DNA from: a virus
Length of the DNA: 64,000 bases
Virus record (IMG/VR): IMGVR_UViG_3300009553_000019
Coordinates: 64,001-128,000 of that record
Direction: 5' to 3' (one strand)
Made by a program: the position numbers and the translations under genes. The notes below the pieces were generated by a model that was given only the letters and a program-made list of their open reading frames with translations, was not told where the DNA came from and did not search any database. Of this stretch, positions 19,790 to 56,966 are shown in pieces. Within the stretch, counting starts at the first letter, position 1, and each line of letters starts with the position of its first letter.

Positions 19790-19863
19790 GGGACTGTAAT
19801 TCAATTGGTTAGAATTCCCGGCTCATAACCGGGCGGTTGTCGGTTCGAACCCGACCGGTCCCA
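19790..19863 (+). tRNA. tRNA with CAT anticodon, most likely tRNA-Ile2; CCA not encoded
   Basis: Acceptor GGGACTG/CGGTCCC-A, D-loop GGTTAG, anticodon arm CCCGG-CTCATAA-CCGGG, T arm GTTCGAA; G1-C72 pair and no GGG/CCC anticodon stem argue against fMet. Confidence 0.92.
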
Positions 19864-19883
19864 CGATAGGAGTTTAAAAAGAG

Positions 19884-31736: not shown

Positions 31737-32852
31737 ATGGCTGCAGCTAAAGCTCCTATCATTAAGGTTCCAGATTTTCATGAACGTATTCTATCGATTA
31801 CTAAGCATGTAGAATCTCAGGTGGAGGGAGCTTCGCTGCAGACTATGCACGGAGAGATCCCGAAGATTCCAGTGCTATCTTCGGGATCTCTTACTCTTGA
31901 TAGATGTCTTGGAGTAGGTGGGTATCCGTTAGGCAGAATCGTAGAAGTGTTTGGTCCTTACAGTGCAGGTAAAACCACACTTACATTGCATGCTATAGCC
32001 TCAGCTATGAAGAGTGGTGGAATTGCTGCCTTCATTGATGCAGAGCATGCATTGGACATGACATATGCAAAAGCTCTAGGAGTTGATCCAGAGAAGTTGA
32101 TTCTATGTCAACCTGACTTTGGTGAGCAGGGGTTGGCAGTCGTAGATCACCTTCTTGACACTGGAATGTTTAAGAAGGGTGACATCATTGTAGTAGATTC
32201 TGTGGCGGCTTTGACACCTAAAACCATCATAGAGGGTGAGATTGATAAGCAAACGATGGCAGTAGCTGCTAGGATGATGTCCACTGCTATGGGTAAGCTT
32301 AAAGGAAAAGTAAGTCAGTCCGGTGTACTACTTTACTTTACGAATCAAATTCGAGAAACTTTGAGCCAGTATGGCCCTGCTACTGATACTCCTGGTGGTG
32401 GTGCGCTGAAGTTCTATTCGTCGATTAGGGTAGAAATCAAGAAAGTCTCTACTGTAATGGTTGGTGTTCCTGGAACGAGTGAGCAGAAAGCGATCGCCAA
32501 CATCACCAAGGTTAAAGTGGTAAAGAATAAGGTAGCACCACCATTCATGGAAGCGGAACTCACTATTCGATATGGTGAAGGTGTTTCTAGATTCGATGAG
32601 ATTATTGATGTTGGTTCCAAGTTTAACGTGATTCAGAAGAATGGTAGCTTCTATAAGTTTGCAGGGCAAACTCTTGGACAAGGAAAAGAGACTGCTATGA
32701 GAAACTTGAAGAATGATCCTACACTAGCTGATGAACTTTTCAATCTGATTTCACATCGATCAGTAACAGGTGAATGTGATGACATCCCACCTAGAGCTAA
32801 GATCTGGACAAAAGATGTTGTGATTGATACTACAGCGGAGTTACCATCATGA
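31737..32852 (+). CDS. recA: RecA recombinase
   Basis: GRIVEVFGPYSAGKTT, FIDAEHALD, VVDSVAAL, NQIR, GGALKFY, KNKVAPPF. Confidence 0.97.
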   Translation: MAAAKAPIIKVPDFHERILSITKHVESQVEGASLQTMHGEIPKIPVLSSGSLTLDRCLGVGGYPLGRIVEVFGPYSAGKTTLTLHAIASAMKSGGIAAFIDAEHALDMTYAKALGVDPEKLILCQPDFGEQGLAVVDHLLDTGMFKKGDIIVVDSVAALTPKTIIEGEIDKQTMAVAARMMSTAMGKLKGKVSQSGVLLYFTNQIRETLSQYGPATDTPGGGALKFYSSIRVEIKKVSTVMVGVPGTSEQKAIANITKVKVVKNKVAPPFMEAELTIRYGEGVSRFDEIIDVGSKFNVIQKNGSFYKFAGQTLGQGKETAMRNLKNDPTLADELFNLISHRSVTGECDDIPPRAKIWTKDVVIDTTAELPS

Positions 32853-45343: not shown

Positions 45344-45550
45344 ATGAGTTCTAATCAAATAGCGGAGGCTGGACGAGGGTCTGCAGCCTCCGCTATTTGT
45401 AAAGATTGTGGTCCAGCCAGTTGCTTAGATGAAAACTGCTCTGGAACCTTGAAGCAAGTTTTAGGTTTGAAACCGATACAGTATCGGTGTACAAGTTGTA
45501 AGCAAGAGTTTTTACTCTCTAAGATTCTACGCGAAAGAAAGTTTCTGTAA
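45344..45550 (+). CDS. small Cys-rich ORF
   Basis: CKDC..C..C..CTSC; overlaps the hairpin. Confidence 0.4.
   Translation: MSSNQIAEAGRGSAASAICKDCGPASCLDENCSGTLKQVLGLKPIQYRCTSCKQEFLLSKILRERKFL
45357..45400 (+). terminator. strong stem-loop after the 44713 gene
   Basis: AAATAGCGGAGGCTG (45357-71) / CAGCCTCCGCTATTT (45384-98). Confidence 0.6.
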
Positions 45551-50409: not shown

Positions 50410-50685
50410 ATGAAACTCATACCAACACTACTGTTGCTAGTTGGCTGCTCTGGTTCAATCGACGAAACCAGATCCTACGCTGGCAGCCCATTTGAATCTA
50501 GCAACCATTCTACTCCCATTGAAAACATCACGTGTACCACTTCCGTTTTGGACGATGACTGCTCGATAGAACAAAGCGTCGTCCGTTGTACTAGCGAGAT
50601 CGAACGACCCGACACTCAGTACTGCACTGGACCGATCGATCGACCTAACCAAATAATTGGTCGTGTTTGGTGCTGTGATCGATGA
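50410..50685 (+). CDS. Cys-rich lipoprotein
   Basis: Lipobox LVGC after a hydrophobic stretch; terminal WCC. Confidence 0.7.
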   Translation: MKLIPTLLLLVGCSGSIDETRSYAGSPFESSNHSTPIENITCTTSVLDDDCSIEQSVVRCTSEIERPDTQYCTGPIDRPNQIIGRVWCCDR

Positions 50686-52187
50686 TTGAAGATCACTTCT
50701 CAAACCGTTCACTGAAGATTCTAGCATTTAAGACTAGAGTTTCAGTGAGGATTGGAAGTGGCAAGCTTTACTGTGAAGTAGCTAACAGCCCAGTGGAATC
50801 GACCATCGGGCTGCAAAAGCATGCCTTGCTTAAGGATGGGCAAGGCATGCTTTTTCCCTTTACACCACCAAGGTACACAGAGTTTCATATGGGAAAGGTT
50901 GCATTTCCCATTGATATTGTGTTTATTGGTGCTGATCGTAAAGTTGCAAAGATTGTTGCTAACATCCAACCTGGAACAAAAGGGCATTGGGGCTGTAATA
51001 ACACTGCCTTTGTAGTTGAAGCTAAGGGTGGTTGGGCTGCTAACCACTCAGTAACTGAAGGTTTAATGGTAGAGCTTAACCCTTTTGAAGATGAAGATAA
51101 AGAGGGAGCTGCTACCTCCGATGTATTAAGAACCATCACTGAAGCATCAGTTAAAGCAGAGATCAATAGAGCTATCAGACTTGGTCAGATTCCTGCTTTA
51201 GATCGCTTTGCAAACTTATCAGATATTGATAAGAAGGTTGTAGCTGTTCATAGTCTTGATTCGGCTAAAAGCTTACTCTCTAAGTATGATGAGAACCCAG
51301 GTTTCTATAGGGTGATAATCTCTCGTATGATTCGAGAAGCTAGCAAGCACAGTCAGATCAAGCTAGATGATGTAATTCTGCCAATCCAGACTGGATATGA
51401 ATGTCCTTGCTGCAAGCATCCTAACTGTGACTTACATGGTAGAAGCCAAAAGGCAGCCCAACAGATTGTCTTGATGTTGACACCTGAACTCATGCAACAG
51501 CTTCAGTTAGGGATGGATCCCTTTCAGAGCATGAGTCCAAATGTTCAGTCTGCTTTTGAACGAATTAGCAAGCTGCTTGAAGCCAATGTGGATGATTCCA
51601 AGCTTGCTTCTGCTTGGAAAGAAGCTCAGGGAAGCTTAGATTTTTGGGAGCGTGATGCTCTTGTTAGATCTTTGCATGATAGCGGGTTTAAGAGAGCTAT
51701 TGGTTTGCTAAAGATTGCTCAAGAGCATGGAAAAGTTACTCTTACAGATCGTAGAAACCCTGGGGCAGTAAACCATATCTCTCCAGAGACTAAGTACAGT
51801 AGCAACCAGATTCCCGCAGATATTCCAGGTGTTGGAGATGCTGCTGACTTTTCTAACTGGGATCAATCAACTGGTTACGATCAGTCTAATCCACAGTTCT
51901 TAAATGAGGATGGGCCTGGATACCGGCCTGGTTCAAAGCAGGCTGGTGGCGGGATTCATCCAGGCGACCGAGTAAAAGTTACCCAAGCTGTTGATGGGTT
52001 ACAGGATGATGATGCTGGAGTCGCAGAAGAAGTCCAAGAAGGGGTTATCCTCGTTCGTTTAGACGGTGGAGAAACTCGATGGATTTCTGATAAAGTTCTT
52101 AGTGTTGAAAAGAGTAAAGATGACATCCTTTCGGACGATAAAGAAAAAGGCAAGTCGTCTGGTGGATGGCATGGGTGGGGTCATTAA
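50682..52187 (+). CDS. DUF192-domain mosaic protein with C-terminal SH3-like domain
   Basis: EVA..GL..GMLF.F..FHM..FPIDIVFI..VVE..GG. Confidence 0.75.
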   Translation: MIEDHFSNRSLKILAFKTRVSVRIGSGKLYCEVANSPVESTIGLQKHALLKDGQGMLFPFTPPRYTEFHMGKVAFPIDIVFIGADRKVAKIVANIQPGTKGHWGCNNTAFVVEAKGGWAANHSVTEGLMVELNPFEDEDKEGAATSDVLRTITEASVKAEINRAIRLGQIPALDRFANLSDIDKKVVAVHSLDSAKSLLSKYDENPGFYRVIISRMIREASKHSQIKLDDVILPIQTGYECPCCKHPNCDLHGRSQKAAQQIVLMLTPELMQQLQLGMDPFQSMSPNVQSAFERISKLLEANVDDSKLASAWKEAQGSLDFWERDALVRSLHDSGFKRAIGLLKIAQEHGKVTLTDRRNPGAVNHISPETKYSSNQIPADIPGVGDAADFSNWDQSTGYDQSNPQFLNEDGPGYRPGSKQAGGGIHPGDRVKVTQAVDGLQDDDAGVAEEVQEGVILVRLDGGETRWISDKVLSVEKSKDDILSDDKEKGKSSGGWHGWGH

Positions 52188-54796
52188 TGTCAACCAAAGC
52201 TAATGAAGCTGCTAGACAAGCTATTAGCAGATCAGCTAACAGTGCATGGGATTTCTCTAAAAATCAACTAGAGTCTTCTCAACCAAAGACGTTGAGAGCT
52301 GTAGTTGCAACTGCTATTGACAAGACTAGGAAGTTGTTAGCAACGTTTGAGATTCCAATTCCTCCAGATATACGCTATGCAAATATCAAGAGTACCAAAG
52401 TTGCTAACAAAGGCGGGCAACAGGTAGTAGAAGATGGTTGCGTAATGCTTGTAGCTAACTTCACAACTCTCAGTGGCGTTAGAAACAGTATAGATATCCC
52501 CGTTGAGATTCGTAATGGCCAGGTTGTAGATCCTGGTGTGATGATTCATGATGGCAGTCTAAAAGTGATTAGCCCCTCATCAATTTTGGACATAGTGAAG
52601 GCTGGAACCTTCAAGCAGTTTACAAGTCCTCGACATACTTTTTCAGCCCCAATGACTCATGATGAGCTACAGCGTTACCATCAGGTAGAGAAAAAGATGA
52701 ACATTCAGCCTAGAATCAACCCAGGTTTATTTTCTGCCTCTAAAAACGCTAGCTTACTAAGAGCTGCAGTAAAGGGTGAGGGAGCTCTTGAGCTTGCAAA
52801 ACAAGCTGATGAACAGCCCAGCGATTTTAGAGATATTGAAGACGGTGTTAGAGCTCTGCCAGATACTGAGACTCCACCTAAATGTCCAGATTGTGATTCG
52901 TTAACAGTTTTTGCTGACTATGACGATGATCAGTTCGAATGTGCTACCTGTGGTAAGGTTGGTAACATGGAGTCATTCTGTAAGCAAGCTAACCAGCCAG
53001 CTTCAGCATCACTCAAGCTAAAGAGTAGCCCACCAACTACTAAAGGTGATCGAATCTGGCTTGAAATTTCTTGGGATCCAGAACAGACTGAAGATATGTC
53101 TGTTGGCAATATCAAACAGCAGATTCGAAGCTATGTTTTGAGGCTTGCTAACAACAAAGAACATCGGGATCTAGGAACGATTTCTGGTAACAGCATCTTT
53201 GAAGAGCTTGATGTTACAAAGGGCAAGGCTACTGTCAGCTTCAAATCATCTGAAGTTGCTTCGCCACAAGATTCGAGTGCTAGGGTTGAAGGTTCAAAGC
53301 AAGCTAAGGCTCAGCCAATCACTCCACAAGAGATAAAGCCTGGGATGGACATCCTCATTGATGAGATGGGGCTGGGTGGGTATTGGACTCCACTTCATGT
53401 TACATCGATTGAACCCTACGGTGGTAGCTGGATTCTCAACCATGGCGAAACAATCATTGACGAACAAAGCTTGATTGTTAAGGACGCTAACAAAAAGGTT
53501 GCTGAAAGTTCAACTTGCGATTGTGGCGATGCTAAGTCTGAACATGAAAATGGCACTGACCATTGCAATGTTCCTGGTTGTGCTTGTCCAACGTTCAAAG
53601 CTGATGACGGTCCACATCATGAAGGTGCTAAGCAAGCTGCAATTGCCCCTAGCAATGATGATATGATCGACCCAGCCGAGAGAGATATTTCAGACGATTT
53701 CAAAGTTGGTGATGAAGTAAAGCTGGAAAAAGGGCAGTTGTTGAGAACTAGAGGTGGTGGTCAATCACAGCTAGAAAAGGGTGAAAAAGGTAAGGTTGTT
53801 GGAGATGTCTACGGAGATGGTGTCTCTCTAGAAGTTGAGTTTGAAGCTGGTACCTTCATTATTCCTAAGCAACACCTGAAGACTGCTGGTGGACCTGGTA
53901 GTGGCCGTAAGAAGAAAAATTCACCTGTTCAAGGCCCTGTTCAGAAAGATAAAGTACCTCAGAGTGATCCACCCCAGTCATCACCTGGTGTTTCGGATAA
54001 AGCATCTTTGAGTCCAGATTCTGCATATATGTTACAATGTATTAAGAACGTTAATTTTAGGGTTCCAGCTGATTCTAACTCACCAAGAATAAAAGAACTT
54101 GCAGCTAAAGGTCTCATTGAAGTAGACGATGATGGTTATTATAAAGCAGTGAGTGGTAACCAACCTTGGTGGGGAGTTGAACCAAGTGGTCCTGAAAAGT
54201 CTGATGAACCTTCTAATACTGTCCACCCACCTGATCCTGATTTTGTTCCAACACCTGCCAACCAAGGTGTGGACATGGGCGAGGCCTCTAGAGCTCATAG
54301 TGACGATGAGGGAGATGCATCCTATAATTTCTTTTCTAAGCATTTTCCTGTCGGGACACAAATTAGCCATCCAGATTATGGCACAGGTGTTGTTACAGAT
54401 ACAAAGCATAGGGGTCCAATCATTGATTGGAATGGTAGTGGTGAGCCAGAAACGCATGATTTAAATAGTCATGAAACACCTGAAGATATGGTAAACGAAA
54501 TGGGCGAATTTACTCTGCATCGTCCCCCACAAAACGGTGGTAATCCTAAACAAAGTAAAAAAACTGCCAGTAATGAGGCTGACGAAGCTGACGAGTACAA
54601 TCTGCCTGTAATGCCAGCTCCAGAAGAGCCAGAATTAAAACAGGCTGCCAGTATCCCTCAAATCATCAACGAACTGAAGAACTTGAGAGAAGCTGGCTAT
54701 CCCGTAATTGATGTTGTTATACGCGCTAAACACCAGTATGGCAAACTAGGTGAGCAGGCTTTGAAGATCGCGAAAGCTCAGGGAGTTTTACAATAA
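52187..54796 (+). CDS. large mosaic protein of small domains separated by KQA/KTA motifs
   Basis: Zn ribbon CPDC..CATC, two SH3/Tudor-like modules, CDCG..H..C..C.C, TAGGPGSGRKK; likely start MSTK at the TAATG junction. Confidence 0.6.
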   Translation: MSTKANEAARQAISRSANSAWDFSKNQLESSQPKTLRAVVATAIDKTRKLLATFEIPIPPDIRYANIKSTKVANKGGQQVVEDGCVMLVANFTTLSGVRNSIDIPVEIRNGQVVDPGVMIHDGSLKVISPSSILDIVKAGTFKQFTSPRHTFSAPMTHDELQRYHQVEKKMNIQPRINPGLFSASKNASLLRAAVKGEGALELAKQADEQPSDFRDIEDGVRALPDTETPPKCPDCDSLTVFADYDDDQFECATCGKVGNMESFCKQANQPASASLKLKSSPPTTKGDRIWLEISWDPEQTEDMSVGNIKQQIRSYVLRLANNKEHRDLGTISGNSIFEELDVTKGKATVSFKSSEVASPQDSSARVEGSKQAKAQPITPQEIKPGMDILIDEMGLGGYWTPLHVTSIEPYGGSWILNHGETIIDEQSLIVKDANKKVAESSTCDCGDAKSEHENGTDHCNVPGCACPTFKADDGPHHEGAKQAAIAPSNDDMIDPAERDISDDFKVGDEVKLEKGQLLRTRGGGQSQLEKGEKGKVVGDVYGDGVSLEVEFEAGTFIIPKQHLKTAGGPGSGRKKKNSPVQGPVQKDKVPQSDPPQSSPGVSDKASLSPDSAYMLQCIKNVNFRVPADSNSPRIKELAAKGLIEVDDDGYYKAVSGNQPWWGVEPSGPEKSDEPSNTVHPPDPDFVPTPANQGVDMGEASRAHSDDEGDASYNFFSKHFPVGTQISHPDYGTGVVTDTKHRGPIIDWNGSGEPETHDLNSHETPEDMVNEMGEFTLHRPPQNGGNPKQSKKTASNEADEADEYNLPVMPAPEEPELKQAASIPQIINELKNLREAGYPVIDVVIRAKHQYGKLGEQALKIAKAQGVLQ

Positions 54797-54802
54797 AGGT
54801 TC

Positions 54803-55222
54803 TTCTTTCTGCGTGGCAACGTAGCCACAGAAAGAGCATCAAATGGAGATTAACGAAAGAGTTCTCAAGGTTGGAGATCTGGTCATCTTTATCGATGAAC
54901 ACAGGCAATTTCATAACGCTTTAGTTACGATTTGGCATGGTTCAAAAGATGGGGACACTATCGGAGGTTATCGTGAGAAATGGACTGCCGCTGACGCAAT
55001 TCCATGTATCAATTTAGTCTTTACAACTGGATCAGAAGACAAGACTGATCCTTATGGAAGACAAATCGAACGAAAAACCTCTGTAGGTCATGGTTCAAAA
55101 CAAACTCCAGCAAACCTTGGAAACTGCTTCATCTGGCCTGATGAAGTTTAGTTAAAATCAACTTGGTCTTGATACCGATGAGGCGTCAATAAGGCTGAGG
55201 TTTCGATGCCACGCAGAAAGAA
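54803..55222. repeat. 16-bp perfect inverted repeat flanking the 102-aa ORF
   Basis: TTCTTTCTGCGTGGCA (54803-54818) / TGCCACGCAGAAAGAA (55207-55222). Confidence 0.9.
54843..55151 (+). CDS. hypothetical phage protein (SH3-like N-terminus)
   Basis: KVGDLVIFID..ALVT..CINLV..DPYGRQIER.TSV.H. Confidence 0.65.
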   Translation: MEINERVLKVGDLVIFIDEHRQFHNALVTIWHGSKDGDTIGGYREKWTAADAIPCINLVFTTGSEDKTDPYGRQIERKTSVGHGSKQTPANLGNCFIWPDEV

Positions 55223-55228
55223 AAAACA

Positions 55229-55468
55229 ATGAAAACTGTTAGAGCAAAGTTTATCTGTACTAAGTCTGAAGATCCTGGTCCTGCAGGACATAAGACAGTT
55301 ATCCTTCATCCTGTATACAGTACAGATCCAGAGTCAGAGAACAAGAGATTTTGGGATGCAACGCCAAATGGTGAATTGCGCATGTACCTGACAAACCCAA
55401 GTCTCAAAGATCATTTTCAGATTGGCAAACAGTACTACCTAGACATTATCGAGGCTGATAATGAATAA
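55229..55468 (+). CDS. small phage protein
   Basis: VRAKF.C..ENKRFWDATPNG..F.IGK.YYLD. Confidence 0.65.
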   Translation: MKTVRAKFICTKSEDPGPAGHKTVILHPVYSTDPESENKRFWDATPNGELRMYLTNPSLKDHFQIGKQYYLDIIEADNE

Positions 55469-56312: not shown

Positions 56313-56921
56313 ATGACACGTGAACAGAAGCTACTCTTGTTTAAAGAGTATGCTCCAATGGCTAAGAGATTAGCCAAATCTTGGATGAAGCGACTTCCAA
56401 GTTCAATACAGATAGAAGATCTTGAATCAGCTGCTATGATGGGGCTTTGGGACGCTATCAATCGAAAAGGTGGCGTTGATTACCTAGAAAACCTAATAGC
56501 TGTCAGAATTAGGGGTTCAATTATCGATGAACTTAGACGGCAAGATTGGCTAAAAAGAAGACAGCGAACTTCTTACTTGAAGGGGAAGGGGATAAGATCT
56601 CTAACCCAGGTTGGTATATACGACCCAGCAGCGTTTGAAGACTTTGAAATAAATTCGAATCTTCAACTGTATCGTTTAGAATTTGAGCCTGACGCTGATG
56701 ACTTTAGTGAAGAGGTTAGGTTTCTATTTAGAGAAGCTGTCAAAGAGTTGCCAAAAAGAGAACAGCTTATCATTGGTGGTATTTTACAAGGTGATACACT
56801 AAAAACAATCTCAAAGAGATTGAAATTATCAGAACCAAGAATCTGCCAGCTAAAAACAAAGATACTAAAAAAGCTTCGAGATAGTCGACATCTCAAGACA
56901 TTGGTTAGAGACGATTTATAG
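56313..56921 (+). CDS. FliA/WhiG-like sigma factor
   Basis: EDLESAAMMGLWDA, RIRGSIIDELRRQDW, LPKREQ..TLK.I...L.LSEPRICQL. Confidence 0.9.
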   Translation: MTREQKLLLFKEYAPMAKRLAKSWMKRLPSSIQIEDLESAAMMGLWDAINRKGGVDYLENLIAVRIRGSIIDELRRQDWLKRRQRTSYLKGKGIRSLTQVGIYDPAAFEDFEINSNLQLYRLEFEPDADDFSEEVRFLFREAVKELPKREQLIIGGILQGDTLKTISKRLKLSEPRICQLKTKILKKLRDSRHLKTLVRDDL

Positions 56922-56966
56922 CGTCTAAGGTTGCTTTTTTTAGAAACCTTAGACGCTATTGTTTTG
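56918..56966 (+). terminator. Rho-independent terminator
   Basis: ATAGCGTCTAAGGTT / AACCTTAGACGCTAT 15-bp stem plus T-rich tail. Confidence 0.75.

Follow-up and report, generated by a model that had tools for sequence, protein, structure and literature searches.

Our best explanation for the region, which we hold with somewhat better than even confidence, is that a small phage gene, here called gene 1, carries a cis-acting architecture in its plus-strand mRNA, composed of a local hairpin (H1ext), a long-range helix that encloses the cistron (P1) and a hairpin behind the stop codon (H2), and that this architecture acts by sequential refolding together with RNase III-type processing or end-protection. 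Sequence comparisons among relatives indicate that all three elements are conserved with covariation, and in the complete cassette P1 is the fold that dominates thermodynamically. P1 is a helix of 25-30 bp, in which a segment termed X and the 5′ strand, the loop and part of the 3′ strand of hairpin H1 pair with a 3′ arm that follows H2. Since P1 thereby takes up sequence that H1ext needs, the two structures are mutually exclusive. The RNA module appears to travel with gene 1 between phage genomes, and we infer that it is cleaved, that it refolds in a defined order and that it affects translation. The DNA analysed, hereafter the window, is a stretch of 64,000 nucleotides (bases 64001-128000) of a 152.6-kb (152,626 bases) IMG/VR record that is about 80% complete; all positions are those of the window unless stated otherwise, and the features of the element are collected in Table 1.

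Table 1. Position of the genes and RNA features in and around the gene 1 cassette.
Feature	Position	Strand	Description
Upstream gene	52166..54796	+	876 aa; TAA stop 54794-96; from the ORF list
Gene 1	54843..55151	+	102 aa; ATG 54843; from the ORF list
Gene 2	55229..55468	+	79 aa; ATG 55229; matches the C-terminal part of phrog_6978
P1 5′ arm	54800..54830	+	segment X, core and perfect 16-mer 54803-18
Segment X	~54800-54811	+	anti-RBS, pyrimidine-rich; outer part of the P1 5′ arm
P1 5′ arm, conserved core		+	GCGUGGCA-A-CG-U-AGCC
H1ext	54804..54835	+	local alternative hairpin; folds in 44/44 loci
H1ext core	54814-17 / 54824-27	+	UGGC/GCCA
H1ext extension	54804-11 / 54828-35	+	UCUUUCUG/CAGAAAGA; covers the purine-rich RBS of gene 1
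Gene 1 ribosome-binding region	54828..54835	+	CAGAAAGA; 7 nt upstream of the ATG
H2	55162..55199	+	3′ hairpin; apical GA-UA-CC GAUGA GG-CG-UC, loop 55177-81, 3-nt bulge in the 3′ strand, covarying lower stem
P1 3′ arm	55195..55225	+	GGUU-U-CG-A-UGCCACGC plus X′ (CAGAAAGAA)

Essentially all genes of the record lie on the plus strand. For the 876-aa upstream gene, no family was found in Pfam or PHROGs, and a 501-aa protein with an N-terminal DUF192 domain is encoded before it at 50682-52187, likewise upstream of the element. Gene 2 is followed by a gene for a 283-aa protein and then by a phage-encoded sigma-70-family factor (56313-56921, regions 2 and 4), three genes downstream of the element. 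At positions -20 to -4 of the predicted starts in this genome, GAAAG/AGAAAG-type purine runs are about 3.4-fold enriched, and they precede many starts in the window (e.g., 45552, 58415, 58679 and 61272); the phage may use such runs beside Shine-Dalgarno sequences of the GGAG type. Perfect local hairpins of 15-16 bp are present in or near intergenic gaps (45356-45399, 31853-31891, 50815-50854 and 56918-56959), one of them at the end of the sigma-factor gene, and may represent terminators or processing hairpins. The sole tRNA of the window was located at 19790-19864 by ARAGORN.

The inverted repeat that brackets gene 1 is real and not a product of chance. The sequence TTCTTTCTGCGTGGCA (54803-54818) is the exact reverse complement of TGCCACGCAGAAAGAA (55207-55222), the 5′ arm has a shorter local partner, GCCACAGAAAGA, at 54824-54835, and AGAAAGA runs precede both gene 1 and gene 2, each stopping 7 nt short of the ATG. 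A preliminary description of this DNA had reported the complementarity, the local partner and the spacings, and its coordinates were confirmed in the sequence. Perfect 16-mer inverted repeats within 600 nt are expected about 0.02 times in the 152,626 bases of the record and were observed twice; the second is a local hairpin (45356/45384), and the pair 54803-18/55207-22 is thus the sole long-range one. The 16-mer repeat widens to 31 nt with 84% complementarity (54800-30/55195-225). The 5′ arm of P1 begins 3 nt after the upstream TAA and its perfect part 6 nt after it, the 3′ arm includes the purine run of gene 2 and ends 3 nt upstream of the gene 2 ATG, and the extended helix reaches from 1-3 nt after the UAA to 1 nt before the gene 2 AUG. 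Similar DNA was not found in the phage collection. The element is not a repeated promoter or RBS motif, as GCCACGCAGAAAGA has two sites in the genome, both of which are the arms themselves. A genome-wide excess of long-range inverted repeats was also rejected: other 14-15-mers fall within coding regions and do not enclose any feature. A second long-range perfect inverted repeat, of 15 nt (AACTTGCTTTGAATC) and with a distance of 473 nt, is present in the phage's own genome beyond the window (G000:C1:133313-133800), and both of its arms lie within small coding regions.

When the RNA of 54790-55245 was folded, the minimum-energy structure included the long-range helix (-138.3 kcal/mol, z = -5.0, 0/100 shuffles as good). 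The local hairpin alone reaches -16.1 kcal/mol (z = -3.3); the RBS of gene 1 thus lies within a stable local stem, as in a translational operator, and does so in 44/44 loci. The hairpin at 55162-55199 has a predicted energy of -16 kcal/mol and differs weakly from shuffled sequences (z = -1.2), yet it is strongly conserved among relatives; it corresponds to the G-U-rich hairpin that had been noticed at about 55160-55202 and that proved to be real and, as H2, conserved in 63 of 68 cassettes. Searches of Rfam 15 gave chance-level matches at most in 54700-55300 and nothing except tRNAs in 12 related loci; the element has no entry there and could become a new family. Neither 54800-54840 nor 55160-55230 contains a site for an intrinsic terminator or a T run, a scan for promoters and terminators returned nothing specific to the element, and ARAGORN did not detect a tRNA- or tmRNA-like geometry at the element. 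One literature search retrieved analogues and no description of the element.

Homologues of gene 1 were found on 19 viral contigs, three assembly contigs and 72 metagenome contigs, the three assembly contigs carrying the closer relatives (49-64% identity to the gene 1 protein), and a profile search with gene 1 yielded 706 representatives at 50% clustering, all of them small proteins. The motif DPYGRQIE is invariant in this family, for which there is no annotated counterpart in Pfam, PHROGs or the protein atlas. Third codon positions vary in the alignment while the encoded residues stay the same, and gene 1 is therefore a real protein-coding gene. Its structure model (pLDDT 87) is a small beta-barrel. 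Foldseek returned nothing at E <= 0.001 with this model, and its fold matches, of the SH3/Tudor/KOW-like type, are weak (Z 5.0-5.7); the product may accordingly be a small SH3/Tudor/KOW-like barrel, a fold assignment that gives no function.

For the analysis of P1, 44 whole cassettes from relatives with 34-64% protein identity were aligned (alignment A2). The architecture of the gene 1 flanks is recognizable by eye in these relatives: upstream, a variable, pyrimidine-rich X is followed by GCGGCA-n-CG-n-AGCCGC, a purine-rich RBS (variants GAAAGGCAGG and GGAAGGAG; AGAAAGA in the window) and the start codon, and downstream, H2 begins about 15-25 nt past the stop codon and is followed by GGYU-n-CG-A-UGYCGCG and then by X′, the complement of X. 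Paired cells make up 88.7% of the P1 positions compared with 71% in shuffles, and 215 cells are altered on both sides compared with 59 in shuffles, a number that 0/500 shuffles equalled. Anchoring the alignments on the conserved cores somewhat favours structure, a bias that for P1 is answered by a slid-register control, in which the covariation score of 0.538 dropped to at most 0.13 when the partner was slid by 1-3 columns. Compensatory changes occur in 19 of the 22 main-helix pairs. The P1 cells comprise 861 Watson-Crick, 90 G-U and 16 A-C combinations, and this excess of G-U over A-C points to selection on the plus-strand RNA and not on a DNA repeat. With mean energies of -43 kcal/mol for the P1 duplex and -22 kcal/mol for the local fold in the 44 loci, the gap amounts to about 20 kcal/mol, and 19 or more long-range pairs appear in the minimum-energy fold of each full cassette (44/44). 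Of the 63 rows of the protein tree, 46 were scored as having P1; they are spread over deep branches, with several losses, and one locus (L061) counted as lacking P1 does carry it. About 17 of 64 cassettes retain H2 without P1, and the helix is thus dispensable for gene 1, a point against our preferred model. A natural variant of the flanks is seen in L116, which in comparison with L112 has matched deletions, namely of the H1 3′ strand with the RBS upstream and of the P1 3′ core downstream, and which retains X, X′ and H2.

The local alternative is conserved in this set as well. When the 5′ segment is folded alone, the H1 core hairpin and the pairing between X and the purine-rich RBS are obtained in 44/44 loci, with energies of -15 to -27 kcal/mol. 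The core differs from CGGC/GCCG in five sequences (the window, L004, L075, L009 and L099), and in those five, changes in the 5′ strand are matched in both the local and the distal partner, which amounts to triple compensation. Covariation of the X-RBS extension in the fixed register of the window is not significant, because the internal loop differs between subfamilies. In register-free permutation tests, which the kinship of the sequences inflates, cognate X and X′ pair with z = -18, and cognate X-RBS pairing reaches -8.89 kcal/mol versus -7.80 kcal/mol for permuted combinations, with 14/5000 permutations as low; the cognate specificity of the latter lends modest support to the local pairing as judged from sequence. 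The preliminary description had proposed that one arm has two mutually exclusive partners and had named RNA folding of the region and covariation in relatives as checks. Both have borne the proposal out: the long-range helix, whose distal partner lies about 390 nt downstream, is part of the minimum-energy fold, the local hairpin is more stable than its shuffles, P1 is supported by compensatory pairs and the local core by triple compensation, and relatives have conserved both pairings.

Of the elements, H2 varies least. The 63 of 68 unique cassettes with H2 mentioned above include ones that lack P1, and when the phage genome was searched with a covariance model of H2, the single match lay after gene 1. 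The invariant pairs of the hairpin, G-C/G-C and C-G/C-G, flank a 2x2 non-canonical internal loop, the apical part has the form CC-GANGA-GG with a G-(A/C)-N-G-A pentaloop, the 3′ strand carries a 3-nt bulge, and the lower stem covaries, with compensatory changes in 8 of 11 pairs. H2 adjoins the inner end of P1, so that the two can stack as one interrupted hairpin from which the RBS and the reading frame protrude as a bulge of about 350 nt. In L061, an ORF for an HNH_3 homing endonuclease (483-935, Pfam E = 3e-12) sits exactly within the apical loop of H2 (L061:430-1050); the 3′ half of H2 and the 3′ arm of P1 directly follow the stop codon of the endonuclease, and then comes a gene for tRNA-Val (977-1049).

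The genomic surroundings of the cassette are variable. The genes downstream of it differ by locus and encode, e.g., a GH25 lysozyme, a ParB/methylase-like protein or unknown proteins. Gene 2 adjoins gene 1 in this phage only and lies outside the conserved cassette, and a synteny search for an empty site found none of the window's neighbour genes near any homologue of gene 1 or gene 2. Among the neighbours, neither a recombinase nor a transposase was detected with Pfam and PHROGs. In L093 and L094, an identical cassette and an identical upstream tRNA array are followed by divergence right past the P1 3′ arm (~1823-1830), which points to the cassette edge as a recombination boundary. The fetched flanks contain tRNAs in 15 of 67 unique loci, and within 200 nt in 10 of 67. 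In L066, L099, L106 and L108, same-strand tRNAs lie beside both P1 arms at distances of 10-55 nt (up to about 80 nt upstream in L099); cassettes in or near same-strand tRNA arrays were seen in these loci and in L093/L094, L059, L072 and L090. Across loci, the median distance from the upstream stop codon to the helix is 3 nt and that from the end of the helix to the next start 15.5 nt, and the Shine-Dalgarno sequence that belongs to the next gene usually lies beyond the helix. The start or the Shine-Dalgarno sequence of that gene is inside P1 or at its edge in about 8 of 40 loci, one of which is the window.

Taken as a model, these features would act in the following order. H1ext would fold first during transcription and keep the RBS of gene 1 closed. 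Once the 3′ arm has been made, P1 would displace H1ext, by which the RBS would be freed and the cistron closed into a loop. A near-perfect duplex of 25-30 bp is a textbook substrate of bacterial RNase III, and P1 would therefore be a likely substrate of the host enzyme and/or an end-protecting clamp. This would leave gene 1 on an mRNA of its own that has the H1 core and H2 at its ends, whatever the neighbours, tRNA arrays included. Such an autonomous mRNA would be useful in changing contexts and in tRNA arrays, the processing of which leaves both ends exposed. One of the alternatives raised in the preliminary description, an RNA processing site that brackets gene 1, is plausible and forms part of our explanation. 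In the window, the 3′ arm of P1 covers the purine run of gene 2, and initiation at gene 2 should thus require that P1 is opened. This could be achieved by ribosomes that terminate at the upstream UAA and melt the outer helix, or by cleavage of the helix, either of which would unmask gene 2.

Several known systems offer partial analogies. The geometry of P1 is that of an RNase III stem, i.e. a duplex of at least 20 bp formed by distant segments of one transcript, here with 31-nt arms and 16 perfect bp. Bacterial RNase III cuts long-range intramolecular mRNA duplexes (PMC11780869), and as in these mRNA targets and in the RNase III stems of 16S and 23S rRNA, the flanks of gene 1 pair over hundreds of nucleotides and enclose a unit. 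Unlike those targets, P1 encloses a single phage cistron, forms in competition with an anti-RBS hairpin and belongs to a single protein family; its cleavage is predicted. The RNase III sites of T7 early mRNA, the lambda N-leader and sib retroregulation likewise concern phage mRNAs that are processed at duplexes, by which translation or stability is altered and terminal hairpins are left, as may be the case here; the T7 and lambda sites are, however, local hairpins between or after genes, whereas P1 is formed by both flanks of one gene. In the Min Jou interaction of MS2, which governs translation of the replicase, long-range pairing masks an initiation region and can be opened by upstream ribosomes, and the coupling between the 876-aa gene and gene 2 proposed above would resemble this interaction between coat and replicase genes. 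P1 differs in that it is part of a dsDNA-phage mRNA, in that it closes a whole cistron where MS2 pairs a coding segment with one RBS, and in that the downstream start it masks is not conserved across relatives. The G-A-N-G-A pentaloop of H2, closed by a C-G pair, could take on a GNRA-like fold in which one base is flipped out and would in this resemble boxB in the nut sites of lambda and P22. Unlike the 5-bp stem of boxB, that of H2 contains a 2x2 internal loop and a bulge, and H2 occurs once per genome, after a stop codon; a boxA (CGCUCUUA-like) match was not found on the plus strand near 55130-55165, and there is no arginine-rich, N-like protein. For the HCV IRES, a closed conformation is reported in which a translation element is locked by its annealed flanks, in a duplex that RNase III attacks in vitro (PMC2760801); this is a eukaryotic RNA virus with a microRNA-triggered switch and is evolutionarily unrelated to the phage element.

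A generic RNase III site or stabilizer hairpin would not need the strict conservation seen in the P1 core (GCGGCA-n-CG-n-AGCC) and in the H2 loop. This hints at a specific protein or a tertiary contact, for which our preferred model does not account, and suggests an additional partner for the tip of H2 and the core of P1, possibly the gene 1 protein. Foremost among the alternatives, and still unlikely, is a ribonucleoprotein platform, in which H2 and the P1 core bind the gene 1 protein or a host factor for autoregulation or for the assembly of a ribonucleoprotein; it could be compatible with our preferred model of refolding and processing. H2 accompanies gene 1 even where P1 is missing and is found nowhere else in the genome, its loop and the flanking CC/GG pairs are invariant, and the barrel modelled for gene 1 is of a fold common among nucleic-acid binders. 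The fold matches are, however, weak and show no function, an RNA-binding motif was not identified in the gene 1 protein, and the H2 loop split by a homing-endonuclease gene in L061 argues that an intact loop is not always kept.

Distinctly unlikely is a reciprocal toggle between two genes, in which the 5′ arm flips between the RBS of gene 1 and that of gene 2 and turns one on and the other off. It is consistent with the position of both partners in the window, each of which is a purine run that ends 7 nt short of a start codon, with the conservation of both pairings as structures, and with the loci (about 8 of 40) in which the next start or Shine-Dalgarno sequence is inside P1 or at its edge. 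The downstream gene is nevertheless not conserved and is replaced by a tRNA in several loci, in most loci the Shine-Dalgarno sequence is outside the helix, with the median of 15.5 nt between the end of the helix and the start, and P1 is so much stronger than the local fold, by about 20 kcal/mol, that the two states are unbalanced. Of the RNA switch proposed originally, the level of action, i.e. the plus-strand RNA, and the alternate pairing stand, but the idea of two balanced states (-43 versus -22 kcal/mol) does not, and reciprocal silencing of gene 2 is unsupported as a general mechanism. Judged from the comparison of loci, control of gene 2 is a local consequence in the window and not a conserved function.

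We consider it very unlikely that P1 serves long-range translational coupling or a shunt, i.e. that it loops the cassette out, by which the upstream stop codon and the downstream start come to lie at the base of one helix, and that upstream ribosomes melt the outer helix and are handed over to the downstream start or unmask it; an inserted cassette would then be 'transparent' to its neighbours. The short median distances on both sides of the helix, with a Shine-Dalgarno sequence between helix and start, agree with this, as does the extended helix of the window, which spans from 1 nt after the UAA to 1 nt before the AUG. Tight packing of phage genes predicts equal spacing, however, and the tRNA-flanked cassettes have no neighbouring ORFs to couple. 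In the ribosomal shunt of the pararetrovirus CaMV, which is part of a eukaryotic scanning mechanism, a long stable helix has a stop codon a few nucleotides ahead of its base and a start directly behind it. The likeness to P1 is purely geometric, nothing observed here shows shunting, and no shunt is known from bacteria. Finally, a DNA-level element, in which the arms are terminal inverted repeats and the cassette can invert, be excised or transpose, as the preliminary description had considered for inversion or excision, is extremely improbable in spite of the 31-bp imperfect inverted repeat around one small gene and the varied genomic contexts of the cassette, given that differences between the arms are plus-strand G-U combinations (90) and rarely A-C (16), that the arms diverge freely yet stay complementary, that the conserved part is the inner and not the outer end of the repeat, and that the cassette occurs once per genome with neither a recombinase nor a transposase nearby.

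Returning to refolding and processing, a wider version of this model, to which we give little probability, is that the cassette is a self-insulating module: the paired flanks would remove the cassette topologically, the upstream stop codon and the downstream start, or the flanking tRNAs, would meet at the base of the helix, the mRNA would be cut out or clamped and its ends protected, and a shunt-like hand-over might add to this. If true, this would be an RNA-level strategy by which a small gene settles between any two phage genes or in tRNA arrays and leaves them undisturbed.

What is known of long-range RNA structure in the mRNAs of bacteria and phages comes largely from individual cases or from cleavage maps of whole transcriptomes and is rarely backed by evolutionary proof; here, a cistron-enclosing helix is documented by compensatory changes in nearly all of its main-helix pairs (19/22), in phages with no more than 35-60% protein identity. 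P1, the conserved hairpin that competes with it and the signature hairpin on the 3′ side all go with one widespread, unannotated phage protein family with about 700 representatives. The cassette thus offers a testable model of how the order of co-transcriptional folding, RNase III-type processing and translation initiation are wired, and equally a model for a small gene that carries its own expression context between genomes and for the role of its protein family.
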